NCBI GenBank assembly: GCA_963701855.1 | Contig: CAVPBK010000011.1 | Location: forward strand, 96,001-160,000 | Direction: 5' to 3' | Source of the DNA: Nitrospirota bacterium | GTDB taxonomy: Bacteria > Nitrospirota > Nitrospiria > Nitrospirales > Nitrospiraceae | Length of the DNA stretch: 64,000 bases | In this document: in pieces, positions 8,110-39,168 of the stretch | Position numbering within the stretch: position 1 is the stretch's first letter | How the letters are laid out: the number at the start of each line of letters is the position of its first letter | Position numbers and translations under genes: made by a program | The notes under the pieces: model-generated | Told to the model about the DNA's origin: nothing | What the model saw: only the letters and a program-made list of their open reading frames with translations | Database searches by the model: none

Positions 8110-8285
8110 AACGTGCTCCTCTCTACGTGCATAATCGAATTGGACTGGCTCTCAAGCCGGTCACTCCATCATAAGCGAATGAACGGGTGAAAGAAAATGG
8201 GGCTAATGCGCTACAGACGATAGCACAATGGGGGAATGTAACCAGGATGGTGAAACTGGCAGTCGAGCAGGTTCTTACAGGTCCA

Positions 8286-9146
8286 TTACCCGACGGTGGG
8301 ATCGTTGCGGCGGAGATTACTTGCGAGGCCGATCAGCGAAAGACTGAATATGATCCATTTCGAGGGGTCGAAATTGTACCACTGCGGTCCATTGCGAAAG
8401 TCGCGCGCATAGGTGTGATGAAAATTGTGATACCCCTCGCCAAAGCTGACGAAAGAGACCAGCCAGCTATCGCGGCTGCTATCTTTCTTGCTGTAGGGCT
8501 GTGACCCAACCATGTGACAGAGTGAATTGATGGTGAAGGTTGAGTTCAGCACCATGAACATCCGGAAGAGACCACCCAAGAGAAAGGCGCTGATGCCGCC
8601 CTGCAGGCCGCCGTGCCAAATACCAAGGACGAAAGGGAGCAGCAGCCCCGTGACCACAATCGGCCAGTAGTAGCGATCTTGCCATATGACGACAGGGTCG
8701 CGGCGCAAACGGATCTCGTATTTATCCTTGCGATGAATGCTATTGTAAAAGAGCCAGCCACAGTGGCTGTGCCAGAATCCCTTGCTTGCATTGTAGGGAT
8801 CTTCTTCTTCGTCCGTCTTGGCATGATGGCGGATATGGTCGCTGCCCCACTTGAGGGCAGAATTTTGCAGCGCCCAACCTCCGGCGACGAGAATACAGGC
8901 CTTGACCCAGTTCGGGCATTCGAAGCTCTGATGCGACACCAGCCGATGATAGCCGACGGTGATGCCCATGCCTGTGACGACGTACATGACAAAGAACAGT
9001 ATCCAATCGAAGCGGCTGAATCCGTAGTAGTAACCGTAGAGTGGGAGACCGATAGTCGAAGCGGCCACGATGGCACAGAATAGAGCAAAGTTTCCCACCG
9101 AAAACGGAGACCTGACCGGTATGGCTTCAGTTGTTGTCGCGAGCAT
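8286..9146 (-). CDS. Acyl-CoA/acyl-lipid delta-9 fatty acid desaturase
   Basis: His boxes HRLVSH, HIRHH, HNFHH. Confidence 0.93.
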   Translation of the reverse strand: MLATTTEAIPVRSPFSVGNFALFCAIVAASTIGLPLYGYYYGFSRFDWILFFVMYVVTGMGITVGYHRLVSHQSFECPNWVKACILVAGGWALQNSALKWGSDHIRHHAKTDEEEDPYNASKGFWHSHCGWLFYNSIHRKDKYEIRLRRDPVVIWQDRYYWPIVVTGLLLPFVLGIWHGGLQGGISAFLLGGLFRMFMVLNSTFTINSLCHMVGSQPYSKKDSSRDSWLVSFVSFGEGYHNFHHTYARDFRNGPQWYNFDPSKWIIFSLSLIGLASNLRRNDPTVG

Positions 9147-9307
9147 GACCTCTCCTTAAAATACACACATCTTTCGTAGCATTAGGCTGAGCTATGGGAA
9201 GGCTGTACTAGGCGTAGTGCAGCATACCGAAATCTTGAGAATGTTTCAAGCGAATGTTCACAGTGTATACTGACGGTACCCCCAGCCTTATTGCCAGTGA
9301 GGTGCAG

Positions 9308-12271: not shown

Positions 12272-13057
12272 AGCCTTCGGCGGCTTGATGTCATACGATT
12301 CCAATTCCTCCGTGATGTCCGTCACCACACCCCGGTCTTCCACCTGCGAAAGTTCCTGCCGCTCGACATACTTGACCAAGCCCACGCCCTTGGCGAACCA
12401 TGCGGTCATCACATCGGTTCCGATGGCTGTCTTCTTCTCGCCGGAGAGATGAATCTGCATCTGCATGCGCGCTTCCACCTTCACGGCATCCTTGAACGTG
12501 CCGGCCGGCACGGTGACCGATTCCAGCCCTAGTACTGTCGCGTCACCATGCGCTTCGGCCTTTTCGTTGATGCCGTCTCGATCCAGATCTGTGCCGAAGT
12601 CCAGATCTTTGCGGTTGAATTGCGGGAAGGACGACGAGACCATCAGCGGGAAGCGCACGATCTGATAAGGGACAAGCTGTTTCTCAAAAGGCGTACCCGG
12701 TTCCGAGCCATAATAGACGATGCCGACGATATCGCGCCGGTAGAAACTATCCGAAGGGCCATGGTTGCCTGGATTAGTATCGTGAAATACGGTGACCGTC
12801 ATGCCCTTGATAGTTTTTGTGCCGGTGACCGAGGACACGTTGGAGAAAAACTTATGCTCGATCGTTTGTAGAGGCCCTTCAGTAATCTGGCCACGATAAT
12901 GCCATTCGTTTCCGATTTGATCGGGGAAATAGTCGGCGGATTGGGCAATGACGCCGGCGTTTTCCGTTGCACGGGATACTGAAAAGGGAGCACAACTGAG
13001 CAGCAGCGCTGTGCCCACGAGAACAGCCCATCGGTATCCCGGTTTCTTCAGCGGCAT
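12128..13057 (-). CDS. Hypothetical exported protein/lipoprotein (VTVPAGTF beta-rich family)
   Basis: Hydrophobic N-terminus ending LLSC, ESVTVPAGTFKDA and WFAKGVGLVK motifs; 3' end overlaps putA. Confidence 0.75.
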   Translation of the reverse strand: MPLKKPGYRWAVLVGTALLLSCAPFSVSRATENAGVIAQSADYFPDQIGNEWHYRGQITEGPLQTIEHKFFSNVSSVTGTKTIKGMTVTVFHDTNPGNHGPSDSFYRRDIVGIVYYGSEPGTPFEKQLVPYQIVRFPLMVSSSFPQFNRKDLDFGTDLDRDGINEKAEAHGDATVLGLESVTVPAGTFKDAVKVEARMQMQIHLSGEKKTAIGTDVMTAWFAKGVGLVKYVERQELSQVEDRGVVTDITEELESYDIKPPKASLGRRESSTEGLLADHTGNHELRQVLFTSGLRSDSGEPMAPKRLPAD

Positions 13058-13085
13058 GTGCGAGATCCTCCACTGGTTACACTCT

Positions 13086-13270
13086 AGGAGCCTGTCCGGC
13101 ATAGACCGTTCTACTGCGGCGAACGCTCCGCAACCATCTGCGTCGTTCTCGGCCCTGAAAAACCCTCAATGTATTCCAGTGAATACGCTTCCGGTTTTTG
13201 CTGGCCTTGCGCCGTTCATCTGGCCGCATCTCCTTCGCCTCGTCACGAAGGCAATATCGGACAGGCTCCT
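13086..13270. mobile_element. MITE-like element D
   Basis: Perfect 13-bp TIR AGGAGCCTGTCCG / CGGACAGGCTCCT; internal CCTCAATGTA-N10-TACGCTTCCG hairpin. Confidence 0.8.
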
Positions 13271-13346
13271 TGGTGACCGTACCATAGCAATCCTGGAGGC
13301 GGCAAGGGAATGAGTCGTCCGGTAGTGGGTCAGTAATAAAATCTGT

Positions 13347-13928
13347 TCAAGAATTGGCAGCCCTGTGTTCCTCACGCGCTGCGCTCCAGACTTCCCGTGC
13401 GGCATCGGCGTTCATCGCCGCGATGCCGAGCCCAACGATCAGATCGGGCCATCCCGAAAGCGTATAGGCCGTGACAAACCCCGTCGCGATGATTGCGACA
13501 TTTGCCAAGGCATCATTTCGAGCTGACAGGAACGCCGCTCGTGTCAAACTGCCGCTATGTGCCCGCAAATGTACCAGCATGAACGCGCACGACAGATTGA
13601 TAGCCAGGGCACCGGCACCAGCCAGCGACAGGGGAAGCGCGGCAGGCGGCAACGGCGCCAAGAACTTCTCCCATGCCATCCAGAATGTAGCGATGCCGGG
13701 TATCAACAGGATGCCGGCAAGGGCCATTCCCACACGAGCCCGGTTGGTTGCACTCCATCCAAGCGCTATGGCAATCAAAAAATTAACTGAGGCATCTTCT
13801 AAAAAATCGACGCTATCCGCAAACAGCGCGACTGAGCTGATGGCGAGGGCCACAGCGAACTCGACTCCAAAATAGGCCAGGTTCAGAATAGCAACAATAA
13901 TGACAGCTTTTCGTAGATTCGCGATCAT
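13347..13928 (-). CDS. Cation transporter (CDF/cation efflux-like transmembrane domain)
   Basis: SVALFADSVDFLED, ARNDALAN, WPDLIVG. Confidence 0.85.
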   Translation of the reverse strand: MIANLRKAVIIVAILNLAYFGVEFAVALAISSVALFADSVDFLEDASVNFLIAIALGWSATNRARVGMALAGILLIPGIATFWMAWEKFLAPLPPAALPLSLAGAGALAINLSCAFMLVHLRAHSGSLTRAAFLSARNDALANVAIIATGFVTAYTLSGWPDLIVGLGIAAMNADAAREVWSAAREEHRAANS

Positions 13929-14057
13929 TCCCCAGCTCCAGCAACGTCCTTCGTTTAGAAGGCCGACAATACAGTCGAGGTCGCCAGATATCAAACTGAC
14001 CCACTATCAATCGTCCCTGCAGACTTGCCTTCACGCGATATCCCACCCATAATCAAC

Positions 14058-14182
14058 CGGTCTATTTGGTCTATCTGGTCTGTCTAATTTGTCTTGTTTA
14101 ACCAAATAAACGAAATAGACCAGATAGACCAAATCAACCAAATAGACCAGATCAACCAGATGAACCAAACAAACCAAAGAGA
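14058..14182. repeat. 9-nt-period palindromic repeat, copy 3 (longest)
   Basis: ggtctatttggtctatctggtctgtc ... (aaccaaatagaccagat)n. Confidence 0.85.
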
Positions 14183-14894
14183 TGCGGTGCTAGTGACCGG
14201 CGCGTCCGGAGGGATTGGTCGAGCGATTTGCCTGGCTTTTGCGGCGGCCGGCTGGTCTGTCGGGATTCACTATCATCGAAACAAGGCAGCAGCTGAGAGA
14301 ACACTCACACAGGTGGTAGCCATCGGTGCAACCGGAGCGCTCTATGAAACCGATATTCGCGAATGGCATGCGGTGGAACAAATGGTGGAAGCTTCCTGCC
14401 GCCAGGTGCCTGCACCATCGGTGTTTATCTGCAATGCCGGAATTGGAGGGAGTCATCTCCTGCTTCGACAACGGGAAGAAGATTGGGCTGAGGTGATCGC
14501 CACGAATCTGACCGGAACATTTCACTGCCTTCGCGCGATGGCCCCTCCCCTCCTCCTTCGCGGCGGTGGATCGATCGTCGTGATTGGCTCGCACACCGGA
14601 TTCCATGGTTCGATTGGGCAGTCCGCCTACGCAGCATCAAAAGCCGGTCTCATTGGTCTGGTACACACCGCCGCCCAAGAGTGGGGAGCAGGCAACATCC
14701 GTGTGAATCTCCTCTTGCCTGGCTGGCAGAAGACGGAGCTATCCAAAGGCGCCATGCCGGCAGACAATAGCTGGAGCGGCCATGCGTTGGGCCGGCCACC
14801 GTCACGAGAAGAAGTAGCCAAAACGGTGTTGCATCTGGCGCAACTTAACGATGTGTCGGGACAGGTTTGGAACTGTGATAGCCGACTCCTCTAG
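14160..14894 (+). CDS. Short-chain dehydrogenase/reductase (FabG-like)
   Basis: TGASGGIG, NAG, YAASK; start uncertain because it lies within the repeat. Confidence 0.88.
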   Translation: MNQTNQRDAVLVTGASGGIGRAICLAFAAAGWSVGIHYHRNKAAAERTLTQVVAIGATGALYETDIREWHAVEQMVEASCRQVPAPSVFICNAGIGGSHLLLRQREEDWAEVIATNLTGTFHCLRAMAPPLLLRGGGSIVVIGSHTGFHGSIGQSAYAASKAGLIGLVHTAAQEWGAGNIRVNLLLPGWQKTELSKGAMPADNSWSGHALGRPPSREEVAKTVLHLAQLNDVSGQVWNCDSRLL

Positions 14895-15020
14895 CAGAAT
14901 GCTGAAAAAGCCCGCCAGCTTCGTTCTCGCATCGTTCAGGTCCTCAACGTACCCGAGAGGGTACGCCTCCGGTCCTTCACTCGCTGCGGCCTTGCTGGAC
15001 GGACTTTTTGAGCATTCTGC
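14894..15020. mobile_element. MITE-like element B
   Basis: TIR GCAGAATGCTGAAAAAG / CTTTTTGAGCATTCTGC, begins on the SDR TAG stop; same core as element A. Confidence 0.82.
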
Positions 15021-15062
15021 GGGAGAACTTCAGTTGTGCAAGACTGATGGGCCAAGGAAGAT

Positions 15063-15884
15063 ATGCTTCTAGCCAAACGACACCCTCACGATTCTGTCCC
15101 GCGAGGAGTCTTTATCACAGCGACCGATACTGGCGTCGGAAAAACGCTCATCACCTCTGCGCTCGCGATATGTCTGACTCGACGGGGGATTGATGTCGGG
15201 GTCATGAAGCCGATTGAGACAGGGGTCTCGCGATCGGCCAAGGCTCAGTCTGATGGAGCGCGGTTGCGAAGTGCGGCTGGAAGCCATGATCCGATGGCAG
15301 AAGTCAGTCCCTATGTCTTCCGACTTCCAGTGGCGCCACTCTCTGCCGCGCGAGCGGAAGGGAAAGCCGTGCTGGTGGCGACCATCATGCGGGCCTTCCA
15401 TGCCCTGCGTCAGAAACATACATTTGTGGCTGTAGAGGGAGTTGGCGGCATAGAGGTACCTATCACACAGTCACTTAACGTATTGGACCTCATCTATCAG
15501 ATGAAGTTGTCGGCCATTGTGGTTGGACAATCTGGCTTGGGGGGAATCAATCACGCGTTGTTGACGCTTCACGCGCTCCGCCGACAAAAGATTCCGATCG
15601 TGGCGTTGGTATTGAATCAACGTCACCCGGTGCGTACGAAGATTGCTCGCCTGCAAGAACAGTCGACCGTGAATCTCCTCAGCCTACTTGCTGGGATTCC
15701 AGTGGTAGGTCCGCTCCCTTACAGCCAGCACCTGAATCGCAATTGGAACGATGGGCTGGTCCGCCTTGCGGGAACTGCTCCGATTACTAGGCTGGCGAGG
15801 CTAGTCCTAGCCCGCATTATTCATGAAGGTTCCTCGCGAACGCGTGCAGAAGCGAAACGGGCACTCGAAGGCGTGAAGCCCTGA
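15063..15884 (+). CDS. bioD: Dethiobiotin synthase
   Basis: TATDTGVGKT, MKPIETG, VEGVGG, LGGINHALLT; C-terminal tail read from element F. Confidence 0.93.
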   Translation: MLLAKRHPHDSVPRGVFITATDTGVGKTLITSALAICLTRRGIDVGVMKPIETGVSRSAKAQSDGARLRSAAGSHDPMAEVSPYVFRLPVAPLSAARAEGKAVLVATIMRAFHALRQKHTFVAVEGVGGIEVPITQSLNVLDLIYQMKLSAIVVGQSGLGGINHALLTLHALRRQKIPIVALVLNQRHPVRTKIARLQEQSTVNLLSLLAGIPVVGPLPYSQHLNRNWNDGLVRLAGTAPITRLARLVLARIIHEGSSRTRAEAKRALEGVKP

Positions 15885-15986
15885 GGCATAATCGTGCAGT
15901 ATATCGTCGAAGGGCTGAACGGCGAAACCGCCTGTCACAGCCGCGTATCCGCGCTTGCAGCAGAAGCGTCAAGAATCATGCGGGCT
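15809..15986. mobile_element. MITE-like element F between the convergent bioD and thiE genes
   Basis: Imperfect TIR AGCCCGCATTATTC / GAATCATGCGGGCT, preceded by CT(AG). Confidence 0.7.
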
Positions 15987-16618
15987 CACATCTGGGCGAG
16001 GAACGTTTTCACAGCGTGGCTGATATCCGGGGCCTTGAGAATTGCCGAGATAACCGCAACGCCATTTGCGCCGGCTCGCATCACCTCACCAAACTGGTCG
16101 ATCTGAATGCCACCAATCGCAAAAACGGGTAGTGATGTGAGCGACCGTATCGCACGTAATCCCTCAAGCCCAACCACCGGGTCGTGATCCTGTTTGGAGC
16201 CGGGTGTGAAGATGGGACCAAAGCCAAGATAGTCCGGTTTCCCGGCAGTGGCTTCCCGCACCTGATCGGGATTATGCGTGGAGATCCCAATCAGTTTGTC
16301 CGGGCCCATCACCTTCCTCGCCAAGTCGAGAGGCAAGTCTCCCTGACCCAGGTGTACGCCATCGGCATCCACGGCCAGAGCCAAGTCACAGCGATCGTTC
16401 ACGATGAAAAGCGCGCCTGCCTTCGCAGCAGCTTGTCGGAGCGCCAAGGCCTCCGCATAGGCTTGCTTCATCGATGCGGACTTGTTGCGGTATTGAAAGA
16501 GGGAGGCGCCGGCCTCAGCTGCAGTTCTCAGCACCTCGACCAAGGGACGCGAAGGATAGACCGACGGATCGAGAATGATATAGAGGCCAGAGAGGGAGTG
16601 AGAACGGGCGGCATTCAT
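15986..16618 (-). CDS. thiE: Thiamine-phosphate synthase
   Basis: QYRNK, IVNDR, GVHLGQGD, GISTH, AIGGI. Confidence 0.95.
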   Translation of the reverse strand: MNAARSHSLSGLYIILDPSVYPSRPLVEVLRTAAEAGASLFQYRNKSASMKQAYAEALALRQAAAKAGALFIVNDRCDLALAVDADGVHLGQGDLPLDLARKVMGPDKLIGISTHNPDQVREATAGKPDYLGFGPIFTPGSKQDHDPVVGLEGLRAIRSLTSLPVFAIGGIQIDQFGEVMRAGANGVAVISAILKAPDISHAVKTFLAQM

Positions 16619-27015: not shown

Positions 27016-27762
27016 TTATGCTTTATTCAATGCGCGTGTGAACAGCTCCAGCACCATGCCGTAACAGATCCTGGCTGCAGCCGGATCGTAGCGGGGACCT
27101 TCGTCGCGAAGAAAGGCGTGTGCGGCGTTGAACTCATGCCATTGGAAATACACACCGGCATCACTCAGCGCGTTGTAGATCAGCGCCCGTCCCTCTCGGG
27201 GAATGTGTGGATCCTGCCTGCCCCAGATCATCAGCAGCTCGCCCGTGATCTCGCCGATCCGGTCCAGGCTGTTGTCGTGCATGCCCGCTCCCAGGCTGCG
27301 CTTGTGGATGTCGGTCGCGTAGCAACAGGTGGCGGCCAGCACGTCAGGCTGCATCGCCGCACGAAACGCCAAATGTCCCCCAAGACAAATCCCCATCGCG
27401 CCCAGCTTGCCCGTGCAATGCGGTGAGGACGTGAGAAAGTCCAGCGCCGCGCGCGCGTCGGCATCGTAGCTCGACAATGTCTTGGTGATCTTGTGCCGGT
27501 TGCCGCGCTCCGCGCCGGCCTCGTCATAGGCCAACACCGTTCCGGCCGGCTCCAGCTCGTGATAAATCTCCGGAACCGCCACCACAAATCCGTGGCTTGC
27601 CAACATCGCCGCAGCGCGTCGGATGGGCCCCGTCACCTGGAAGATCTCCGAAAACAGCAGCAGGCCCGGATACCGCCCCTCAGCCACCGGACGAAAGAGG
27701 TACGTGCGCATGGGCCCAGTGGACGTGTGGATATCAACCGACTCGGTATCTTTAATAATCAT
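27016..27762 (-). CDS. Dienelactone hydrolase family protein
   Basis: SEIFQ, GICLGG nucleophile elbow, HAFLRDEG. Confidence 0.92.
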   Translation of the reverse strand: MIIKDTESVDIHTSTGPMRTYLFRPVAEGRYPGLLLFSEIFQVTGPIRRAAAMLASHGFVVAVPEIYHELEPAGTVLAYDEAGAERGNRHKITKTLSSYDADARAALDFLTSSPHCTGKLGAMGICLGGHLAFRAAMQPDVLAATCCYATDIHKRSLGAGMHDNSLDRIGEITGELLMIWGRQDPHIPREGRALIYNALSDAGVYFQWHEFNAAHAFLRDEGPRYDPAAARICYGMVLELFTRALNKA

Positions 27763-27826
27763 CCCGTTCTCTATTGAGCCCCTACAAAGTGCGGACGCCG
27801 AACACAGACCTTGCTATACTGTGTCG

Positions 27827-28027
27827 ATGCTCAAACGTTCTCTGAACAGAACCAATCCCTGTCTTGTCGATCCGGCAAAACGCCATGCCATGTTTCGGAT
27901 GACCGTCTACACCTCCACAGATATTGAAGGCGTCAAACTCACCCCGTCCGACCTGCTTGCTGGAACGAGAGCCGCGCGCCGCATTACTTCCCGTGAATCT
28001 GCAAAGTCCTCTCGATCACCACGATAA
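27827..28027 (+). CDS. Small hypothetical protein
   Basis: 66-aa ORF MLKRSLNRTNP... with a TGCTATACT extended -10-like motif just upstream. Confidence 0.4.
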   Translation: MLKRSLNRTNPCLVDPAKRHAMFRMTVYTSTDIEGVKLTPSDLLAGTRAARRITSRESAKSSRSPR

Positions 28028-28109
28028 ATTGTTTCGTCATTGGTTCGTAATTGCAGGCTAGGCCAGCGCGAACTGCGGCAAAATACTCCTGCCGCATTCG
28101 ACCTGCCTA

Positions 28110-29636
28110 TCAAACCTTCTTTTCTTGTGGTTCACTGCCTAGATCATTCGCAATCAGTCGGAATTGTTCCAAAGCTGCTTCGAGGTCGTCGACGATTTCT
28201 TGGGCGATGATGTCGGGGTTAGGAAGATTTGCGGAGTCTTCTAGGGAGTCGTCTTTGAGCCAGAAGATGTCGAGGCTGGCTTTGTCGCGGCCGATGAGCT
28301 CGTCGTAGTCGTAGGCACGCCAACGGCCATCTAGTTTCTTGTCGGACCAGGTGGCTTTGCGGGTGTGGCGGTTGCCGGCCTGTTTGTCGGGCCGGTCGTG
28401 ATGGCCGTTGTAGCATTTCACGAATTCGTCCAGGTCTTCGCGCTTGAGCGGATCGGTCTTGAGCGTGAAGTGCTGGTTGGTGCGGAGGTCGTAGATCCAG
28501 AGCTTCTTGGTCCAGGGACTCTCGCTCGCCGGTTTTTTGTCGAAGAAGAGCACGTTGGCTTTCACACCCTGCGCATAGAAGAGGCCGGTCGGCAGGCGCA
28601 GGAGTGTGTGCACGTCGCACTCGTGCAAAAGCTTGCGCCGGACGGTTTCTCCCGCGCCACCTTCGAAGAGAACGTTGTCAGGCACCACGACTGCGGCGCG
28701 GCCATTCTGCTTCAGCAACGTTTTGACATGCTGGACGAAGTTGAGTTGCTTGTTGGAGGTCGTCGCCCAGAAGTCGTCACGCTCGACGATGTCCCGTTCC
28801 TTAGAGACCTGCCCTTCTTCCCCCACAATGGTCGTGCTGCTTTTCTTCCCAAAGGGTGGATTAGTCATCACGATGTCGAACCGATCGCCCGGATCAGCGG
28901 CCAAGGAATCGGCCACAACGATGGGCAGGTCTTTGTCGCTTCCGATCCCGTGGAGCATCATGTTCATCGCGCAGAGTCGTGCAGTGCTTTGGACCAATTC
29001 CCATCCCTTGAACGTGCCTTGCTTCAGTTGTCGCTTTTCGTCCTTAGTCAGGTTGGGATAATGCTTCACGATGTAGTCATGTGCAGCCAGGAAAAATCCG
29101 CCGGTTCCACAGGCCGGGTCGCAGATGGTCTCGCCGGACTTCGGGGCAATGGCCTCCACCATCGCGGCGATTAGCGGGCGCGGTGTGAAGTACTGTCCCG
29201 CGCCGGACTTGGTGTCTTGCGCGTTCTTTTCCAGCAAGCCCTCGTAGGCATCCCCTTTCACATCGGCGCTCATCGTGGACCAATCTTCTTTGTCGATCAG
29301 ATCCACAATCAGCCGCCGCAGCTTGACGGGGTCTTGAAACTTATTCTGGGCCTTCGTAAAGATCAGGCCGAGCATGCCTTTCCCTTTGCCAAGCTCTTCA
29401 AGGAGATGGCGGTAGTGGTCGAAGAGGTCGTCGCCGTCCCTCTTCAGCAGGCTGGGCCAACTGTACTTGTCGGGAATCTGGCTGGGCTGATTGTACGGCG
29501 GCTTGGTCCGCTCGTCGGCCATCTTGAGAAACAGCAGATACGTCAACTGTTCCACATAGTCGCCGTAGCTCATCCCATCGTCGCGGAGGACGTTGCAGTA
29601 GTTCCAGAGTTTTTGAACGATTTGGTTATTTCTCAT
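28110..29636 (-). CDS. hsdM: Type I restriction-modification methyltransferase subunit
   Basis: GQYFTPR, DPACGTGGF (motif I), NPPF (motif IV). Confidence 0.95.
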   Translation of the reverse strand: MRNNQIVQKLWNYCNVLRDDGMSYGDYVEQLTYLLFLKMADERTKPPYNQPSQIPDKYSWPSLLKRDGDDLFDHYRHLLEELGKGKGMLGLIFTKAQNKFQDPVKLRRLIVDLIDKEDWSTMSADVKGDAYEGLLEKNAQDTKSGAGQYFTPRPLIAAMVEAIAPKSGETICDPACGTGGFFLAAHDYIVKHYPNLTKDEKRQLKQGTFKGWELVQSTARLCAMNMMLHGIGSDKDLPIVVADSLAADPGDRFDIVMTNPPFGKKSSTTIVGEEGQVSKERDIVERDDFWATTSNKQLNFVQHVKTLLKQNGRAAVVVPDNVLFEGGAGETVRRKLLHECDVHTLLRLPTGLFYAQGVKANVLFFDKKPASESPWTKKLWIYDLRTNQHFTLKTDPLKREDLDEFVKCYNGHHDRPDKQAGNRHTRKATWSDKKLDGRWRAYDYDELIGRDKASLDIFWLKDDSLEDSANLPNPDIIAQEIVDDLEAALEQFRLIANDLGSEPQEKKV

Positions 29637-29708
29637 CAATATTCTACAGATAATCCCTTTGCCGCATGGGGGATAGCGTTGCAAAACAGAAACTACGGCA
29701 CTCTGGCC

Positions 29709-30134
29709 CTACCTTGCTCCTGAGAACAAGACTCGCTTGATGAAGCTTTCGTCTACATATGAAAATGACTGCGGCACTTTAAAGCCGCTACGCACTTCTG
29801 TAGGTTCAAGCTCCTTTTTGAGTCTCACAGCACGCCGGAGTGATATGAAGACAGCGGACTCTGACCCAGAAAAGTATGCCTTAAATGCACTCCTGGAAAT
29901 TCCTGCAGCCTGTCTGGTCTGTCTCCATGTCGCCGACACAGATGCCGCTGTTACTCTGACGACCTCAGCTATCCCCACTATCTTCTTCACTGGCGAAGTA
30001 GAGTAGATCACAACGTGCGTTATATCCTGTCGCAACCGAGATCTCCTGAACTCGTATTTCTTGCTTCCCTCAAGAATACGATTTGCATAGATGGGCTTAA
30101 TCGGCAAAAAAGCAATTACCGAGTCGGCACTCAT
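29709..30134 (-). CDS. ASCH (PUA-like) domain protein
   Basis: PIKPIYANRILEGSKKYEFRR (GxKxxExR), VIYSTSP, PQSFSY. Confidence 0.88.
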   Translation of the reverse strand: MSADSVIAFLPIKPIYANRILEGSKKYEFRRSRLRQDITHVVIYSTSPVKKIVGIAEVVRVTAASVSATWRQTRQAAGISRSAFKAYFSGSESAVFISLRRAVRLKKELEPTEVRSGFKVPQSFSYVDESFIKRVLFSGAR

Positions 30135-31578
30135 CCACGACCTTCCGAAACGCTTCATTAGATATTTTTCTGATTGTCTGGATTTGCCCATTCACTACCC
30201 CTTGCTCAGATAACCAGTTAGAGGGAATCACATTCTGAAGGTGAGCTGCTAACCGAAACAATATTACTTTCGTCTTTTTCTCTGCGATCTTCACAATATC
30301 GTCGTAAGAGTACACTGTTCGCTTTGAAACAAGCTGCAAAATTTTGTCGTGATCCTGGTACTCATGGACCGACTCTACAACGCCAATGCTTGTAATGGCT
30401 TGGATATCCTGAGATCTGTAGAAAAACAGAATGTCTCCCGACTTAATACCGCTGATTCTCGCGTGGCAAAGATATGCCTGCTTAATCGCGTGCCCTGCAC
30501 TTGATGGGCCAAAGAGGCTTGGTTGAATTTGGATTTCCGGGAAAAGGACTTTGTGATACTCAGGACGAATAGGCACGATGTACTTACCGACTTCTCTACT
30601 GCTGAGAATATGGGGATAGAAGAGACGATGGTATTCGAGTGGAGGAAGCGCAACCTCAGGTGGGTGTAAGGGATGCTCCTTCACAAAGACATGATCGTTT
30701 TGGTATTCACCAAATATTGTGAAGCCAAAATCGGCACAGAGGTCCTCAAGAAAGTCTTGTTTGCCTGGCCTCATAGTGATGTAGATATGCTTTAGCCGGT
30801 TGTTCGTCGCATAGCGAAACGCTGCTTTTAGTAGAAGTTCGCCGAGCTTACGGCCACGTGCCTGTTCAGCAACTTTGAATGTGCATAGCTTGAGTGTCCT
30901 TCCAGGCAATGCCTGGTTGTCATTGGTCACGATTGGATCGCGCTCTTCCTTGAAGATTGCTATAGCTCCCGGATTTCCATCGGAATCACGATATACCCAA
31001 GCCGTCCGCCCTTCCCTAGCTTTTTCCTGATACCACTTGTCAAATTTGTAATCACTCCTCAGGGAATCGAAAAACGAATTCTCCAAATCAATCTGGTGCA
31101 GCGGAACCTCTTCGATACTGGGCAGAACAACTCCAACGCGCGCGTGGAGGTGTTCTAGGAAGGATGTAGCTTGCTGGATGTAGTGAACTCGGTCAGCAAT
31201 TCCGATTTGCAATGCTTTCTTGTGAAGCTCTCGGTCCTCGGTAATGAGGATGTTGGCAGCATCGCGATAAAGGGCATAGAGGATCTCATTATCGACCCGG
31301 TCGTTGTCATCGCGTTCTATAAGCCCTAGCTTAGACAGTTCTGCGGCAGCTGGTCTTGGCGGATTCCCCAGAGTGGAGTACTTGCGAAGCCGCGACAGGC
31401 TGATGTCGCGGCGCTTCTTGTCTGGGTCACGGGCTATGTCGTCATTGGAGGACGGGTGTGCGAGGAGCTGATGTCCATTCTCGCTTGCAAGACGGACCAG
31501 TTTGCTAAGGCTCTCTTCAAGAACACGAGTTGAATCTTCCAGGGGAATTACAACATTGGTATCAATGAGGATTCTCAA
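30097..31578 (-). CDS. PIN nuclease - GNAT acetyltransferase - ASCH/EVE-like fusion protein
   Basis: IDTNV, DNEIL and ITEDREL (PIN acidic residues); KLCTFKV...RGRKLG (GNAT motif A); PIRPEYH...GDILFFYRS...IGVVE (PUA-like). Confidence 0.82.
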   Translation of the reverse strand: MRILIDTNVVIPLEDSTRVLEESLSKLVRLASENGHQLLAHPSSNDDIARDPDKKRRDISLSRLRKYSTLGNPPRPAAAELSKLGLIERDDNDRVDNEILYALYRDAANILITEDRELHKKALQIGIADRVHYIQQATSFLEHLHARVGVVLPSIEEVPLHQIDLENSFFDSLRSDYKFDKWYQEKAREGRTAWVYRDSDGNPGAIAIFKEERDPIVTNDNQALPGRTLKLCTFKVAEQARGRKLGELLLKAAFRYATNNRLKHIYITMRPGKQDFLEDLCADFGFTIFGEYQNDHVFVKEHPLHPPEVALPPLEYHRLFYPHILSSREVGKYIVPIRPEYHKVLFPEIQIQPSLFGPSSAGHAIKQAYLCHARISGIKSGDILFFYRSQDIQAITSIGVVESVHEYQDHDKILQLVSKRTVYSYDDIVKIAEKKTKVILFRLAAHLQNVIPSNWLSEQGVVNGQIQTIRKISNEAFRKVVDECRLGNCFFAD

Positions 31579-31602
31579 AGCCTGAGACTTCCAGGAGCTG
31601 GC

Positions 31603-32823
31603 TCACGTTTCATTGCTTCGCCCAGATAGCAAACGGCCAGCAAAAGCCTGGCTAAGGATTGATTGTCGCAGCCGGTCGGCGCGGGTGAGGTTGGTTTGGA
31701 CGGTGGCTTCGAGTTCCTCGATGACGGATAGGCGGCGCTCGACTTCGGCGATGATTTGCTCTTGCTCTACCACCTGAGGAATATCGAGCGGTAACACTTT
31801 GAGATCACCGCCTGAGATCCCAGATTGTCCAGCCGTGGTCCGAATCTTCGACTCAATGTATTCGCGCGCGCGGCCAGTCGAGGCGAGGATCACCAAGAAC
31901 TCGGGAAGCATCATCAAGCGGGGGACACGAACTCGTATCAGCTTGTCTGGGTAAACCGTGGGAGGCAGGTTTGCCGGCACTCGTGCGCACACGCCAACAT
32001 AGTCCCGGTTTCCGTTGTAACGCGTAAACAATATGTCGCCTGGCTCAACGAGGAACGGCTCATAGTCTGCTGGAGTTCCGGATAAATAGCGAACATCGTT
32101 TGCATCCAGTTTCATCGGACGAACCGCGCTAATCCGAAAAATACGTGTCCCATGCTCCGCATCGGGTTTCTTCGAGTAGCCGTTTCTGATGGAAGTCGTG
32201 ATATCACCAAGGACGACTTGTTTCCAAGGCCCCGCGGGCGGCGCGAGCTTCCCTTCGAAGGCGGCTTTGAGGACGGAAGCTTTGTAGCGTTTGAGGTTGG
32301 CCTTGACGCGTTTGAGGTTGGCAACGGCTTCGTCGAGGCGGGAGAACTGCTTTTCGATCTCCGCGACGATGCGATCCTGTTGCCCTTTTGGTGCATGTGG
32401 CAAATGTAACTTCCTTAAGAACTGAAAATGGCGACTGTAGCCACGACTTGGAATCTGCAGCGAGCGAAGGAGATAGTAGAAGAACTTGGGAACATACCCC
32501 TCACGAGGCCGTAGGATCTTCACGCCTTCGGCACCCACGGCAAATCGCCTATCAACGTATTTGAACGAACGTGTGTGGTCTCCAAATAGGATGACAGGCA
32601 ACTCATCATCAAAAGTCATATCCTCATCGTCGGTATAACCTCCGATCGTGTCTTGCCCTTGATCGATGACGGGAATCTTCCCTGCGAGCAAATATGCTCC
32701 CTGTTTAACCCGCCTACCTTTATCGGAAATTACATCGGCAGCCTGCTCAAATGGCAGCACATCCCAGCCCAGAGGCACGATGGGCATTTCTGGCTGAAAG
32801 ATATCTTCCAACGTCTTTTTCAC
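31603..32823 (-). CDS. hsdS: Type I restriction-modification specificity subunit
   Basis: Two TRDs separated by conserved helices QDRIVAEIEKQFSRLD and EQEQIIAEVERRLS...QSILSQAFAG. Confidence 0.93.
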   Translation of the reverse strand: MKKTLEDIFQPEMPIVPLGWDVLPFEQAADVISDKGRRVKQGAYLLAGKIPVIDQGQDTIGGYTDDEDMTFDDELPVILFGDHTRSFKYVDRRFAVGAEGVKILRPREGYVPKFFYYLLRSLQIPSRGYSRHFQFLRKLHLPHAPKGQQDRIVAEIEKQFSRLDEAVANLKRVKANLKRYKASVLKAAFEGKLAPPAGPWKQVVLGDITTSIRNGYSKKPDAEHGTRIFRISAVRPMKLDANDVRYLSGTPADYEPFLVEPGDILFTRYNGNRDYVGVCARVPANLPPTVYPDKLIRVRVPRLMMLPEFLVILASTGRAREYIESKIRTTAGQSGISGGDLKVLPLDIPQVVEQEQIIAEVERRLSVIEELEATVQTNLTRADRLRQSILSQAFAGRLLSGRSNET

Positions 32824-32940
32824 GCTGCCAAAGTCCCGTTCAGTTCTTCAATAAGTTTGTTCAGCTCGCTACCAAAACCTGATGCACCTTCCCTAGCCCA
32901 CCTTCCTGAGCAAAGGGCGCGTACTCGAAGTCGTCCTTCG
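32820..32940 (-). pseudogene. hsdR: Orphan 3' end of a second hsdR allele
   Basis: Encodes KDDFEYAPFAQEGGLGKVHQ, identical to the main hsdR tail; its TGA overlaps the hsdS GTG. Confidence 0.85.
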
Positions 32941-33023
32941 CAATGCTACGATTTGCCTGCTTACACGCGGTGCGCAGGCGAGCTGCGAATCGGTCGTCCC
33001 CACTTCGGACAAGTCCCGCACGC

Positions 33024-33328
33024 TTATCTAAGTCGCGACTGCCAGTACCCCGGCCGTCGTTTCAGATGCATGACGGCGACGACGAGCAGACTGTTGGAGT
33101 GTTGGCTATAGATAACCGCGAACGGGAAGCGATGCACAAGGAAGCGCTTTGTTCCTCGCTTATATTCCGGCCAGGCATTCGGGGTTTCTCGTATTCGGGA
33201 GACGGCAACAGTGATTTCGTGGAAGAACGACCCCCGAGACCTGGTCGCTGTGCGTCGTACCATGCCTTGGCCAGCTCTAGCTCGGCAAGGGCGGCGGGAT
33301 GGAATTCGAGAGGCAGTTCACCGGCCAT
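33024..33328 (-). pseudogene. RelE/ParE-family toxin, frameshifted
   Basis: FHPAALAEL...WYDAQRPGLG in one frame, ...RFPFAVIY...VAVMHLKRRPGYW in another; shift at a G5 run (33231-33235). Confidence 0.82.
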
Positions 33329-33545
33329 GTCGCAGGCGCTTTTGCACCTCCTCCCAGGGGATAGTCTTTACCTCGCCACGCTCGATTTGCCCAAGCCGCC
33401 GCTGCACTTCTTCTTGCCAGGCCTGTTCCACATCGGTATCCGGAACCTCATCTAAGCTGGCAATCAACTGCTCCGCCACTTCTGCACGCTCATAGGCAGT
33501 TAGCTTCAGAGCCTCTTCCAACAAGACTTGTGACTTTTGCGTCAT
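33318..33545 (-). CDS. Addiction-module antitoxin component
   Basis: ALKLTAYERAEVAEQLIASLD...AWQEEVQRR...IPWEEV; overlaps the toxin start. Confidence 0.88.
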   Translation of the reverse strand: MTQKSQVLLEEALKLTAYERAEVAEQLIASLDEVPDTDVEQAWQEEVQRRLGQIERGEVKTIPWEEVQKRLRHGR

Positions 33546-33558
33546 AACGAACCTCCTC

Positions 33559-36488
33559 CTAGGCCACGAGAGCCACATTCATGGCCTCTATTATGGTCTG
33601 AAGACCCTCTGGAAACAACTGATGTACCTTTCCCAACCCACCCTCTTGCGCAAAGGGCGCATACTCGAAGTCGTCTTTGTCAACCGCAAGATTCGCCCCG
33701 ATGTGATCGCGGATCATCTCCAGCCAATGGCGTTGCTCATCGGTAAACTTCCTCTTTCTGCTCTCTTGCTCCCCTAGCCAAGCCTTAAAGTTGGCGTTGA
33801 CCTTCTCAGGAAATGGCACCAATTCATTCTCTTGGTGAGTGGCGAAGCGGACAAGGGAGACGAGGTCCGTGAGAATGCGCTTGCCGCTTGCACCTTTGAC
33901 CTTGGACTTCTCCAGGGCCGCATAGGCCTGCCAGAGTTGGGATTCGTTCCAAAGATAGGGCGGCTTTTCGATGGCATTGGCGAGGTCCTTGATGTCCTCG
34001 AACTTCAGCCGTTGTTTGTACGGCTTACTGTAGAGGATTTGCAGAGCGGTGATCTCGTCTTTGTGTTGTGTGATGAACAGTTCGAACGACTGTACGATGG
34101 TGCGGGCACGAGCCAACGCGTCGGCGCTGAAGCCTGCTTCGATGACTTGATCCTGGCTGACATGGTCGATGGTCAGCTCATTTTTCTTCTTGATGTCGAT
34201 GAGCAGTTCGCGGAGCTTCGGGTCTTGAAATGGCTTGGCGGCTTCCTGGATGAGCGCGCTGCCGCCTTTGCCATTTGTTGCTCGGTCGGCTTATCCGTCC
34301 CGAACTGCTTTCTTGCCAATTCTTCATGCCGGTCTGGATTGACCGCTTCCACCAATTGACGACTGAGGTCTTTGAGCGTGAGGCCCCCACTGGCTTTGCT
34401 GATGGCCTGTTCATCTTCCTTCGTGATCCGGTGCTCCATGCGGGCCAGCCGTCCGGCGATGCTGGTGAGTACGTCTTCTTCGGTATTCCCCAGTGCGACA
34501 GCTTGTAGCAGCTTCTCAAAGGCGACGCTGGGCTTCTTCTCCATCGGTCGCGCGTCGGTCTTATCTTGCTCGCAGACGCCGACGGTATCGACGATGACGA
34601 AGTGGTCCTTGGTCGTGGCATCGGGCGTGACGGCCTTCAGATCGTCCGGCTTGATGACGCGGACACCCCGGCCCTTCATCTGCTCGAAGAAGGTGCGGGA
34701 TTTCACCGCGCGCATGAAGACGACGATCTCGACCGGCTTGATGTCGGTGCCGGTGGCGATCATGTCCACGGTGACGGCGATGCGGGGATGGTAGCTGTTG
34801 CGAAAGGTCTTGATGAGGTCCTTGGGATTCACGCCGGTGGTGCGATAGGTGATCTTCTGGGCGAATTCGTTGCCCTTGCCGAACTCCTCGCGGAGGATTT
34901 CGACGATGTTCTCCGCATGGGCGTCGTCCTTGGCGAAGATGAGGGTCTTGGGCACCTCGGTGCGGCCGGGAAAGATCTCGGTGAAGAGCTTCTCCTTGAA
35001 AGCTTTGACGATGGTGCGGATCTGGTCCGGGGCGACCACGTCGCGGTCGAGCTGGTCGGGATCATAGGCGAAGTCATCGTCAAGCCTCTCCCAACGTTTT
35101 GCGCGCGTTTCACGATTCATCACCTGCACGCTGTATCCAGCATCGACCGTCGAGCCCGCCTGAGTTATTGCGGTACGGATGCGGTACACGTCGTAGTTGA
35201 CGTTGACGCCGTCGGCGACGGCCTGCTCGTGTGAGTATTCCATGACCAGGTTCTGATTGAAGAAGCCGAAGGTCTGCTTGTTGGGCGTGGCGGTCAGGCC
35301 GATGAGGTGGGCATCGAAGTATTCCAGCACCTGTGCCCAAAGGTTGTAGATGGACCGATGGCATTCGTCGGTGACGATGACGTCGAAGGTTTCAATCGGA
35401 ATAACCGGGTTGTACTCAATCGGCTCGATTGGGCTTCTCAGAAGGCCGTGATTCTGCGTTGCTCGGGTCGCTCCGCTGCTCATTGACGCGCCTGTCAACT
35501 CCGCTGCTCGCTCGCCTCGCGCCTTGTCTGACGACCTTCTGCTTTGCCCAATCCCTTGGGTGAGCCGTTCAAGCCCCGCGATGGAAATTTCTTCGTCCTC
35601 GTCCGATAGCTCGCGCCCCTTCAGCATGGAATACATGCGCTGAATGGTGCTGATGCAGACTCGCGCGGTGGTATCGAGGGTATTGCCCGCCAACCGCTGG
35701 ACGATGAACTCTTCGGTGAACTTGAAGTTGTTGTAGGGCGAGACATACTGCTGGAATTCCTTGAGCGTCTGGTCGCCGAGGTTGCCACGATCGACGAGGA
35801 AGAGCACGCGGCGCGCGCCGCCGAACTTGATGAGGCGGTAGATGAAGTTGATGGCGGTGAAGGTCTTGCCGCTGCCGGTGGCCATTTGGATGAGGGCGCG
35901 TGGACGATCCTGAGCCAGCGACTTTTCGAGATTGTTAATGGCGGTGACTTGCGCGGGCCAGAGACCGGTGGTGCTTAGAGGTGGCAGCGTCTTCAAGCGA
36001 GCGCGGAGGGTCGTCGCCGTTTCTGCGGCCAGAGACGCGCCGTGCAGATCCTTCGGGGCTTCGCTGCGCTGTGGGATTAAAGCGGCCAGTGTCTCGGGTC
36101 GATGGAAGCTGAACACGGGGCGGCTGCGCGGTTGGGGATCGAGGCCGTTCGTGAATCGCGTTTCCACGCCGGTGCTCTGATACAGAAACGGCAACGGTCG
36201 GATAGAGGCAGGTAAGTCCGTGGGGAGGCCCTTGCTGTACTTCTCGGCCTGGACTTCCACGCCGATGAGAGTCACGCCTTCTTTCTTGGCTTCGATGATG
36301 CCTGCGGCCTTGCCGTCCACATAGAGGAGATAGTCCGCAAAGCCGTGCCCGCTCACGAGCGGAAAGTTTCTGAGAACCACGCCTCTTCCGGCATGAAGAT
36401 TTGCGCTCTTGTAGTCCTGAACTCGCCAGCCAGCCTGTTCCAGCGCTTGGTCGATGTGCTCACGCGCTTGATCTTCAGGAGTCGGCAT
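33559..36488 (-). pseudogene. hsdR: Type I restriction endonuclease subunit R, frameshifted near 34257
   Basis: ADY...IEAKK nuclease motif, MATGSGKT, DECHRS, TATP, QMKGRG; the C-terminal domain continues in another frame (ALIQEAAKPFQDPKLRELL... into ORF 33559-34116). Confidence 0.9.
35427..35553. mobile_element. Palindromic element E inside the hsdR reading frame
   Basis: TIR GATTGGGC / GCCCAATC, inner CAGAAGG / CCTTCTG and a TTGAC...GTCAA hairpin. Confidence 0.72.
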
Positions 36489-36561
36489 GGGCCGAAGAAT
36501 ACCTCTTTCCCCTAGAGAAATCACTCCGCCTTCCGAGAGAGGGGGAGCAACGGTAAAGACG

Positions 36562-36620
36562 GTTTGTCTGGTTTATCACCCAAGGAAACCAGATAGACCA
36601 AAAAAACCAGATGAACCAGA
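36562..36620. repeat. 9-nt-period palindromic repeat, copy 6
   Basis: gtttgtctggttt ... aaaccagatagaccaaaaaaaccagatgaaccag. Confidence 0.75.
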
Positions 36621-36680
36621 GCAGGCTCGTTCACGGTACAATCGTGGCTCTGGCAGCACTCTCACAGTGGAGACGACACG

Positions 36681-37674
<994 letters not shown>

Positions 37675-37809: not shown

Positions 37810-39168
37810 TCAGGATGGCTGGGGCTCTGTGGGATTGGTGACTTCGGATTGGGACTGAAGCGCGATTAGTTCAGTCTCGGGTGTGATACGCCCTACATCG
37901 AGGAGGATGGCGACGAGCATGTCGCTCAGGACGTTGACGCCTGAGCGGGCTCGGGCAATGATCCAATCCACCGTCATGATGAGTGGAATGGCTGCGCCGA
38001 TGACGTGAGATGGCAAGCCGGCGGCTGAGAGGACGAGCGGCAAGACGATCATCCCTGCTTCCGGAATGCCGGCCACGCCGGCTCCCGCGATCATCGACGC
38101 GGCGACGATCAGTATCTGGCTGTCCATCGGCAGGTCAAAGCCCAGCGCTTGGGCGAGAAAGAGCGCGGCCATCGCTTCATAGAGAGTGATGCCGTCGTTG
38201 TTGAGGTTCGTGCCGACACAGGCGGCGAGGCGCGCCGATTGAGGCGAGACCTGCATGCGATCGAGGCACCGGAGGGTGACTGGCACGGCGGCGAGACTGC
38301 TGTTGCATGACACGGCGGTCATGATCGCGTCGGCCCCCTGTCCTATGTAGACCTTCGGCGACTTCTTCCCGATCAGCCAGGCGACGAGCGGGTAGTAACC
38401 AAGCGAGTGGATGGCGAGTCCGACGAGCATGGTGACAAGGAAGATCCAGAGGACGGCGAAGACTCCGATGCCTGCCTTGCCGACGACCTGCGCGACGACG
38501 CCGAAGACGGCGAGCGGTACCGCGAGGATGATCCATCCGAGGATCTGCACAAGCCACGAATACACGCGCTCAATAATCCGTACGAGGGTCTGCACGACTC
38601 CACGACCCTGGTCGGTATGACCGTGCAAGCGGCGAAGAATGGCGCCGATGCAGAGGGCAAGGAGCACGACTCCGATGATGTTGCCGGTAGAAAACGGAGC
38701 CATGATGGTACGAGGAATATAGGAGGCGAGGTATTCGATCGGACTCTGGGTTCCGGTCTGCACTGTTGCCGAGGCGCTCGCCGATGGCTTGGCGGTTGGC
38801 ACGACGTTCAGCAAGTCCTCGACGTGGCCATTCCAGGCTAGGCCCGGCTGCCAGGTGTTCATGATCACGAGGCCGATCGTCATGGCCACGGTAACGTTGA
38901 CGAGGCAAATGAGGAGCAGCTTGGCCCCCTGACGCAGCGGGAGGCTGGTGCGGACAAGCGCATCGAGGATCGCAAAGAAGATGAGCGGGATGGCGAGGGT
39001 CTTGAGCAGCGTGACGAGCAGCAGACCGAGCCAGCCTAGATGCTCATTCTTGAGGCCGCCCAGATACGGCTCTTGACCAAAGACCACGCCAAGCAACGTG
39101 CCACAGGCCACCGCGATGAGCACTTGTGTGTAGAGCGGCAGCGGGATTAATCGTGGTGAGGCCTGCAT
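37810..39168 (-). CDS. Dicarboxylate/amino acid:cation symporter (DAACS/GltP family)
   Basis: SCNSSLAAVP, NLNNDG, GVAGIPEAG, DWIIARARSGVN. Confidence 0.9.
   Translation of the reverse strand: MQASPRLIPLPLYTQVLIAVACGTLLGVVFGQEPYLGGLKNEHLGWLGLLLVTLLKTLAIPLIFFAILDALVRTSLPLRQGAKLLLICLVNVTVAMTIGLVIMNTWQPGLAWNGHVEDLLNVVPTAKPSASASATVQTGTQSPIEYLASYIPRTIMAPFSTGNIIGVVLLALCIGAILRRLHGHTDQGRGVVQTLVRIIERVYSWLVQILGWIILAVPLAVFGVVAQVVGKAGIGVFAVLWIFLVTMLVGLAIHSLGYYPLVAWLIGKKSPKVYIGQGADAIMTAVSCNSSLAAVPVTLRCLDRMQVSPQSARLAACVGTNLNNDGITLYEAMAALFLAQALGFDLPMDSQILIVAASMIAGAGVAGIPEAGMIVLPLVLSAAGLPSHVIGAAIPLIMTVDWIIARARSGVNVLSDMLVAILLDVGRITPETELIALQSQSEVTNPTEPQPS

Follow-up and report, generated by a model that had tools for sequence, protein, structure and literature searches.

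The window analysed here is a stretch of 64,000 nucleotides (nt) from a Nitrospirota bacterium (assembly GCA_963701855.1, contig CAVPBK010000011.1, positions 96,001 to 160,000 of the forward strand). It carries two overlapping genes, A and B, between hsdS and hsdM of a type I restriction-modification (RM) operon. The pair is a member of the (PIN)-GNAT-EVE plus ASCH family, PADLOC candidate PDC-M11, an observation that is not new. Its best explanation, to which we give an even chance, is a toxin-antidote defence cassette, possibly an acetyl writer and eraser pair that acts on RNA. New here are an ATPase-less group of RM-embedded loci, the strict coupling of A and B, the sequence link between gene B and the ASCH protein ZmASCH, the lack of a TmcA or TmcAL match in the genome, the link to the annotated phage pair GevT/GevA, and a broken hsdR. 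The ATPase and RM distribution pattern may already be present in earlier work, in Bell et al. with its supplements or in Iyer et al. 2013.

The genes from 28.1 to 36.5 kb of the window form one co-directional string on the minus strand, in the order hsdR, a small toxin-antitoxin (TA) pair, hsdS, A, B and hsdM (Table 1). The hsd system looks EcoAI/EcoEI-like, which would make it type IB; hsdM and hsdS are intact and hsdR is split. Gene A begins 24 nt after hsdS, and B ends 24–72 nt before hsdM, depending on the hsdM start, which is probably 29636 as profile alignments open at residue 17. The A-B cassette is transcriptionally wired into the hsd operon. A preliminary description made from the sequence alone had placed both open reading frames (ORFs) exactly where they were found, embedded between hsdS and hsdM. 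It had also called the genes overlapping, and they are, by 38 nt. The 95 nt implied by the longest ORF of B (29709..30191) does not hold, as homologue comparison and an upstream GGAAGG Shine-Dalgarno-like motif place the start of B at ATG 30134. The two genes are more AT-rich than their neighbours, as described (GC 0.48 versus 0.54–0.58 in hsdS, hsdM and hsdR), and lie 6–10 points under the hsd genes in three lineages (the window and loci L022 and L001). Recent acquisition was rejected as the cause because L022 and L001, whose hosts differ in GC, show an equal deficit. A promoter and terminator scan of 27700–36800 was uninformative (0 promoter-like sites; 14 terminator-like sites versus 10.6 ± 3.0 expected).

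Family membership was examined with PADLOC and sequence searches. Gene A matched PDC-M11A (PDLC04422) with E 1.1e-140, residues 1–487 lying on profile positions 1–495 of 501. Gene B, directly downstream on the same strand, matched PDC-M11B (PDLC04424) over its full length with E 5.2e-42. The family is large: 1749 relatives were found at E <= 1e-5 among 8000 candidates scored, and a metagenome scan with alignment confirmed at least 512. In the parts of their paper available to us, Bell, Wolf and Koonin (2020, BMC Biol, PMC7641849) describe (PIN)-GNAT-EVE fusions with an ASCH gene nearly always alongside and often an AAA_17 ATPase, report a frequent association of these operons with HsdRMS and, in Methanohalophilus, a fusion of ASCH to HsdS, assign no definite role to ASCH, and state that none of these modules had been experimentally characterised. 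For the first description of the family, and for a proposal that DNA bases are acetylated, they refer to Iyer et al. 2013. The preliminary description was therefore right that comparable architectures close to RM loci were already predicted with the mechanism lacking, and its reading of the pair as a defence module agrees with these predictions and with PADLOC. Full-text searches for a published mechanism or anti-phage test of the family gave only annotation mentions and the Bell paper. The window's locus shares with the operons of Bell et al. the three-domain fusion, the ASCH partner directly downstream and the HsdR/M/S association. It differs in that the AAA_17 ATPase is absent and the cassette lies inside the operon rather than at its end.

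Gene A contains a PIN-like region (about residues 1–150), a GNAT acetyltransferase (about 152–308) and a PUA-like/EVE domain (about 329–488). Its Pfam and PADLOC matches were PIN_3, GNAT, EVE and PDC-M11A only. An AlphaFold2 model built on a 44-sequence alignment had a mean predicted local distance difference test score (pLDDT) of 87.3. The PIN call of the preliminary description is the weakest of the three, being below threshold for gene A alone and supported at the level of the family, where PIN_3 matched 32/44 homologues (best 3e-5). The motifs named in the preliminary description are present: the protein opens MRILIDTN (D6-T7-N8) and ITED supplies T113-E114-D115. D6, N8, D96, E114 and D115 are invariant in the 44 homologues. 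When a six-sequence N-terminal profile was compared with PDB sequences, the top match was a PIN protein (1o4w) at a non-significant E of 0.29.

The other two domains of gene A were assigned as the preliminary description had proposed. The RGRKLG sequence lies at residues 241–246, the motif-A glycines are invariant in the 44 homologues, and the GNAT fold is present in the model with its acetyl-CoA-binding motif A intact. Foldseek matches include the tRNA-acetylating toxins TacT (7f36, 5fvj) and AtaT (6gtp) at about 3–4e-5. The C-terminus forms an EVE/PUA-like beta-barrel whose nearest structure is ZmASCH. The GxKxxExR motif typical of gene B (below) had no counterpart in this barrel in a low-confidence hhalign comparison of the B family with the A family (probability 1.9%, E 0.026), nor is any Lys or Glu there invariant in the 44 homologues. 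Because the ASCH catalytic motif has no counterpart there, the PUA-like domain of gene A looks like a non-catalytic reader.

Gene B is a stand-alone ASCH protein, again as first described (Pfam ASCH, E 1e-5). Its AlphaFold2 model (pLDDT 95.8) superimposed on ZmASCH (ZMO0922, Zymomonas mobilis; PDB 5GUQ, 5GUS, 5Y6B, 5Y6C) with a template-modelling score of 0.83–0.86, a root-mean-square deviation of 1.7, E 8e-14 and 25–27% identity. The gene B family profile matched the ZmASCH sequence over its full length with E 9e-26. Both belong to the same ASCH subfamily and have the motifs GxKxxEFRR, IYa..PVK and PQS in common. Among 37 gene B homologues G23, K25, E28 and R30 (GxKxxExR) are invariant, as are Y44, W70, Q122, S123 and Y126. 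Gene B thus has the ASCH beta-barrel and the GxKxxE/TxR octapeptide (Lys plus Glu or Thr) seen in N4-acylcytosine amidohydrolases, and YqfB (9kyf) is among its fold matches (E 7e-3). Other fold matches are TRIP4 ASCH complexes with double-stranded DNA and the modification-reading McrB-N and THYN1 domains. Gene B also matched NCBIfam PRK12279, a family of L22 ribosomal-protein fusions, in its C-terminal "unknown domain" (E 1.5e-10, far under the cut-off of that family); this is a further hint that the subfamily may be linked to ribosomes or RNA.

Two studies bear on what such proteins do. According to the available text of a 2026 preprint (10.64898/2026.02.27.708502), 19 ASCH proteins, ZmASCH among them, removed N4-acetylcytidine (ac4C) from E. 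coli tRNA in vitro, and a Lys+Glu dyad was essential in GKER-type members. Kim et al. 2017 (PMC5615036), in the portion available, describe ZmASCH as a Mg-dependent single-stranded RNA nuclease that binds and cleaves through Y47, K53 and S128. These three residues align with conserved residues of gene B, and the aligned Y44, Q122 and S123 are invariant. The two activities were measured on ZmASCH, whereas gene B is known from sequence and model. At the sequence level gene B is a relative of ZmASCH that keeps the Lys/Glu dyad. Because this enzyme-type dyad is kept, the role of gene B may be that of an eraser or antidote, not of a sensor. An A-B complex prediction gave "no answer" (score 0.00) and informs neither way.

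To place the pair among its relatives, neighbourhoods were surveyed on metagenome contigs and in 401 genomes of one phylum. The metagenome loci were the best 80 of the at least 512 confirmed relatives, and a search of genome contigs with a single protein gave one locus, L001. Gene B followed gene A on the same strand in 77/77 evaluable metagenome loci, 76 of them by tblastn and the last (L088) on a contig that holds only the first residues of B. Three loci fall outside this count: L093 and L099, whose contigs end 26 and 16 nt after A, and L020, in which A is cut. Given this recurrence, the A-B pairing is not chance. In L020 (2218–3430) gene A is 85% identical to the window's and cut at residue 457; the unrelated sequence after it resembles, by eye, the start of a transposase helix-turn-helix (HTH).

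The third gene of the family divides the loci. The comparison set consisted of the window, L001, four loci of the phylum and the 80 metagenome loci. Loci with a gene A at least 54% identical to the window's were taken as the close group (the window, L001, L020–L026, L078, L088 and L099); the others, at 50% or less, were called distant. An AAA_17-family P-loop ATPase, about 175 residues long, directly follows the ASCH gene in most loci and directly precedes A in L015 and L016. It adjoins the pair in 64/69 evaluable distant loci (L018, L028, L076 and L077 lack it and L081 is ambiguous). In the close group it was next to A-B in none of the nine evaluable loci, the window's included. Conversely, hsd genes flank the cassette in 9/12 close-group loci (not in L021, L024 and the very short L099) versus 9/74 of the rest. 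These RM counts, made by tblastn with the window's Hsd proteins, are lower bounds that miss divergent type I genes (hsdS of L057 was seen by Pfam only). The R-S-A-B-M order recurs in L022 and L026 and partially in L001, L020, L023, L078 and L088. Among the RM-linked three-gene loci, the cassettes of L039, L040 and L050 open 11–71 nt past the final hsd gene, which has the same orientation. In a quick maximum-likelihood tree with an arbitrary root, the ATPase-bearing loci fell in a 68-row clade (support 97 in the Shimodaira-Hasegawa-like approximate likelihood-ratio test, SH-aLRT), outside which stood a five-row group with the window (support 100), L022/L023 and L024. From such a tree we do not claim a single-clade origin of the ATPase-less loci.

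Wider context was examined with a Pfam scan of three ORFs on each side of the cassette in 25 non-redundant loci, L081 not among them, with flanks of at least 3 kb on either side. In 18/25 loci a defence or TA gene was present, judged from Pfam names and without a random-gene background. This result is in line with the expectation that homologues lie in defence loci. Type I RM genes were found in six of the 25 (L022, L039, L040, L050, L057, L083) and a type ISP enzyme in one (L066). Other defence-type neighbours, by Pfam name, were Cap4 nuclease, AAA_15/21 with DUF4435, AbiEii, OLD-TOPRIM, SIR2_2, GmrSD, Abi_C and KAP NTPase. Housekeeping flanks alone were seen in 4/25 (L047, L054, L058, L068). 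Co-occurrence with type I RM genes holds for these six loci and for most of the close group, but not for the majority of the family. Distribution is patchy: the full-length protein occurs in 5/401 genomes of the phylum and in 0/12 other genomes of the genus.

Phage copies of the pair were also found. In a tblastn search of phage records, lambdoid coliphages (including H37–H43) were found to carry a PIN-less GNAT-EVE gene and an ASCH gene between cI and kil, the interval that rexAB (exclusion) would occupy in lambda. In Escherichia phage PhiR47_2 (PV340567.1; L101 3013–4441) the pair is annotated as GevT toxin and GevA antitoxin. Residues 151–490 of gene A are 31% identical to GevT (E 4e-38), and gene B shares 35% identity and the GxKxxEFR motif with GevA (E 9e-26). 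As at the window's locus, a GNAT plus EVE-like protein is followed by an overlapping ASCH gene; the phage pair differs in lacking the PIN domain and in lying in a prophage immunity region rather than an RM operon. A full-text search found no paper behind the names GevT and GevA, an initial search having been swamped by unrelated uses.

Several other mobile copies were seen. Methanothermobacter phage psiM100 carries in its "inserted fragment IFa / ORFD" (8233–9522; H34/H35) a relative of gene A over residues 1–423 (34% identity, E 7e-60), so that a virus of archaea, too, carries the cassette as an insert. On the Burkholderia anthina conjugative plasmid NZ_CP126319.1 (L019, 8989–12497), A is followed by a 135-residue partner, an "ATP-binding protein" and a DUF6685 gene; the cassette adjoins an integrase and replication and partition genes, with no RM nearby. 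HTH-fused partners are visible among alpha-proteobacterial plasmid matches.

These observations suggest a toxin-antidote cassette. Gene A would be a harmful effector on RNA, most probably tRNA or another RNA of translation: its PUA-like domain would dock on nucleic acid as a reader, its GNAT domain would move an acetyl group from acetyl-CoA, and its PIN domain would cleave RNA. Gene B would be translationally coupled to A and act as the antidote. Because the ASCH Lys/Glu dyad is kept, it is plausibly enzymatic, stripping an acetyl mark (an N4-acetylcytosine-type amide) rather than acting by binding alone. Phage infection would tip the A/B balance and lead to a stop of translation, that is, abortive infection. 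In the ATPase-less, RM-embedded group the missing AAA_17 and the position of the cassette inside the hsd operon suggest that the RM complex supplies the regulatory input. TmcA (GNAT family) and TmcAL, which we take to be the known tRNA ac4C writers, had no match in the genome (97% complete), although control genomes matched, and gene B is the only ASCH match in the genome. The conserved ASCH motifs of gene B, the activities reported for ASCH proteins, the motif-less PUA-like domain and the lack of a TmcA/TmcAL match make an arrangement of writer (GNAT), reader (EVE-like) and eraser (ASCH) with a PIN executor attractive.

A fully specified version of this scheme is a long shot. In it RNA would receive an N4-acetylcytosine-type mark from the GNAT domain; the EVE-like domain would read this mark and guide PIN, and ASCH, as an enzymatic antidote, would erase it. 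In the ATPase-less group the RM complex would then replace the AAA_17 sensor and A-B would serve as a PrrC-like restriction guardian. Neither a reversible-acetylation effector nor the idea that RM replaces the ATPase was found in print (search terms ASCH, acetylcytidine, toxin and EVE domain). The available text of the ASCH-eraser preprint (10.64898/2026.02.27.708502) makes no mention of GNAT.

A number of points weigh against the toxin-antidote explanation or its RNA chemistry. PIN_3 reached only E 0.015 and 16.5 bits on gene A against a cut-off of 27, although the match spans profile positions 1–114 of 115. Foldseek and wider fold lists for the whole 493-residue model were filled by GNAT and ASCH matches and did not reach the PIN domain. 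The GNAT fold is closest to protein N-terminal acetyltransferases, with nothing firm on substrate, and its target could be a protein or the amine of an aminoacyl-tRNA; we know of no ASCH protein that deacylates aminoacyl-tRNA amines. A small gene downstream of a large one is the reverse of the gene order in TA pairs of GNAT and ribbon-helix-helix (RHH) proteins. The toxin and antidote roles rest on GenBank annotation, and hsdR is frameshifted in the window. Since type I genes are absent from the three nearest ORFs on each side in 19/25 well-flanked loci, the family does not require RM for its function. A full-text literature search found no experiment on any PIN-GNAT-EVE protein. In the accessible part of the preprint (10.64898/2026.02.27.708502) ZmASCH showed no activity on free ac4C and did not significantly lower ac4C in vivo, and the deacetylase reading of the gene B subfamily rests on the single in-vitro assay reported there.

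Two known arrangements are close to the proposed cassette in part. DarT, a toxin, writes a nucleic-acid mark by ADP-ribosylation of DNA, its macrodomain partner DarG erases the mark, and the pair defends against phage. The likeness to A-B is one of logic only; folds and chemistry differ, and no DarTG model in PADLOC matched A or B. The GNAT-RHH pairs TacAT, AtaRT and KacAT have the GNAT fold in common with gene A. In contrast to them, the partner of A is a downstream ASCH barrel rather than an RHH protein, and A has additional PIN and PUA-like domains.

Because the cassette lies within an RM operon, we considered whether it is a PrrC-like restriction guardian, as the preliminary description had it. 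There the two genes were put forward as a sensor-effector pair that would sense either modified nucleic acid or inhibited RM and then halt translation. In the guardian reading, protein A would lie latent in the HsdM/HsdS complex, possibly with HsdR, until a phage anti-restriction protein releases it to halt translation. This possible but unlikely alternative is compatible with the best explanation and adds a specific trigger. The tight gaps on both sides of the cassette, the recurrence of R-S-A-B-M order, the junctions in L039, L040 and L050, the lack of the ATPase from every evaluable locus of the RM-embedded group and the ASCH-HsdS fusion (PMC7641849) are all consistent with it. By the available text of a review (PMC12707154), PrrC is likewise an accessory, translation-attacking gene within a type I hsd operon, being embedded in the type IC locus of EcoprrI and activated when T4 Stp inhibits EcoprrI. 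By analogy, the A-B locus may work like the PrrC locus. However, A and B have no sequence or domain homology to PrrC, giving only PDC-M11 in PADLOC and PIN, GNAT and EVE in Pfam, and they form a two-gene cassette with an acetyltransferase and a PIN domain. Most relatives stand outside RM loci, 19 of the 25 well-flanked ones included, as do the phage and plasmid copies. Within the close group, L021 and L024, which have some flank, show no hsd gene. Finally, hsdR is broken in the window.

The hsdR break was examined by comparison with the intact 938-residue HsdR of L022. The window's protein is 63–64% identical to it over two frames, with the switch near 34262–34268 (reference residue about 706); the second tblastn high-scoring segment pair is 64% identical to L022 HsdR residues 706–938. 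Among public sequencing runs checked for this site, none contains more than 0.39 of the sampled words, and the contigs of four runs (85% likeness) leave 34251–34277 uncovered. The frameshift, like the two others nearby (below), may reflect true decay of the island or a locally faulty assembly. If it is real, the copy here would guard a methylation-only system. Because hsdR is split, a PrrC-style guard may have nothing to guard here, unless the split is an assembly error. Three split genes cluster at 33.2–37.3 kb of the window: the ParE-like gene (about 33245), hsdR (about 34265) and a Peptidase_M90 gene (about 37262), whose profile positions 3–144 and 150–243 fall in consecutive ORFs. No other family was split over consecutive ORFs among the 62 window ORFs scanned.

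A distinctly unlikely alternative is that the pair is a DNA-directed accessory of the RM system. The GNAT domain would acetylate a DNA base and the EVE-like and ASCH domains would read or erase it, giving a second self/non-self label or a modification-dependent arm. The base-acetylation proposal goes back to Iyer et al. 2013 according to Bell et al. (PMC7641849), through whom it is known to us. In the part of their paper available, Bell et al. take HTH-ASCH and ASCH-HsdS fusions as an argument for the binding of modified DNA by these ASCH domains. The HTH-fused plasmid partners, the TRIP4, McrB-N and THYN1 fold matches of gene B and the position between hsdS and hsdM fit this proposal. Against it, RNA is the target to which the conserved PIN RNase domain points, single-stranded RNA and tRNA are the substrates of ZmASCH, the nearest characterised relative, in the available reports, and most loci are without RM.

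The pair could also be a selfish addiction module with no role in phage defence, found in RM operons and defence islands only as mobile genes gather there. Annotation of the phage homologues as toxin and antitoxin, the second TA pair in the same operon, the plasmid copies beside replication and partition genes, the low GC in three lineages and the patchy distribution would all suit such a module. We nevertheless regard it as improbable: unrelated lineages repeat the close operonic junction with hsd genes, the phage copies occupy what is presumably the exclusion slot of lambda, and PADLOC lists the pair as a defence candidate. There is next to no chance that A and B are a housekeeping pair for regulated writing and erasing of ac4C-type marks on cellular RNA with no part in conflict. 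The tRNA ac4C erasers (in the accessible part of 10.64898/2026.02.27.708502) and the L22-fused PRK12279 domain favour it, but the occurrence in 5/401 genomes and in no congener, the defence-island neighbours, the phage and plasmid carriage and the PIN nuclease speak against it.

The toxin-antidote explanation would matter chiefly for its chemistry. The family is widespread, listed in PADLOC and discussed in print since at least 2020, and we found no paper that shows what any of its domains does. If the acetyl writer and eraser reading is true, it would be a defence chemistry of which we have seen no report, and a physiological role for ASCH deacetylases would follow from it. The locus is a useful test case, being the minimal two-gene form hard-wired between hsdS and hsdM, where RM dependence is directly testable. 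Because the host has no TmcA/TmcAL match, an acetylated nucleoside that appears on expression would be attributable to gene A. Should the reading fail, the locus would be one more annotated PDC-M11 instance. Its interest rests on the open mechanism of the family and on a clean, minimal locus.

Table 1. Genes of the hsd operon and the A-B cassette (positions are those of the window).
Feature	Position	Strand	Evidence
hsdM, type I methyltransferase	28110..29684	-	longest ORF 524 aa; Pfam N6_Mtase 5e-73, HsdM_N 1e-11; PADLOC MTase_I 3e-203
gene B, stand-alone ASCH protein, 141 aa	29709..30134	-	PADLOC PDC-M11B, Pfam ASCH
gene A, PIN/GNAT/PUA-like (EVE) fusion, 493 aa	30097..31578	-	Pfam, PADLOC PDC-M11A
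hsdS, type I specificity subunit, 406 aa	31603..32823	-	PADLOC Specificity_I 1e-57; NCBIfam PRK09737 7e-40, under its cut-off
probable ParE/RelE-like toxin gene, two frames (33062..33328, then 33024..33263)	33024..33328	-	reading of translations
small antitoxin-family gene between hsdR and hsdS	33318..33545	-	Pfam Unstab_antitox PF09720 E 1e-16
hsdR C-terminal piece, other frame	33559..34116	-	Pfam EcoEI_R_C 3e-41; homologous reading opens upstream, about 34265
hsdR N-terminal part (about 3/4), 783-aa ORF	34173..36524	-	Pfam ResIII, SWI2_SNF2, HSDR_N, Helicase_C; frame lost near 34262–34268

Further features of the island were noted. The second, small TA pair lies between hsdR and hsdS (33024–33578, minus strand) and consists of an Unstab_antitox gene followed by the split ParE/RelE-like ORF. 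The latter had no Pfam match at E 0.001 or 0.01, and its identity is a reading of the translations. Between helicase motifs, at residues about 310–355 (35.4–35.6 kb), the window's HsdR has about 41 low-complexity residues that are inserted relative to the L022 homologue. In L017 (genome G189, same family; 9692–16468) a MazE/PIN pair and a sodium:dicarboxylate symporter gene are found close to the three-gene form A, B and AAA_17, and this copy of gene A has one in-frame TAG. The window's island also adjoins a sodium:dicarboxylate symporter gene (37810–39168), and the symporter-side position in both genomes may reflect a shared integration hotspot.

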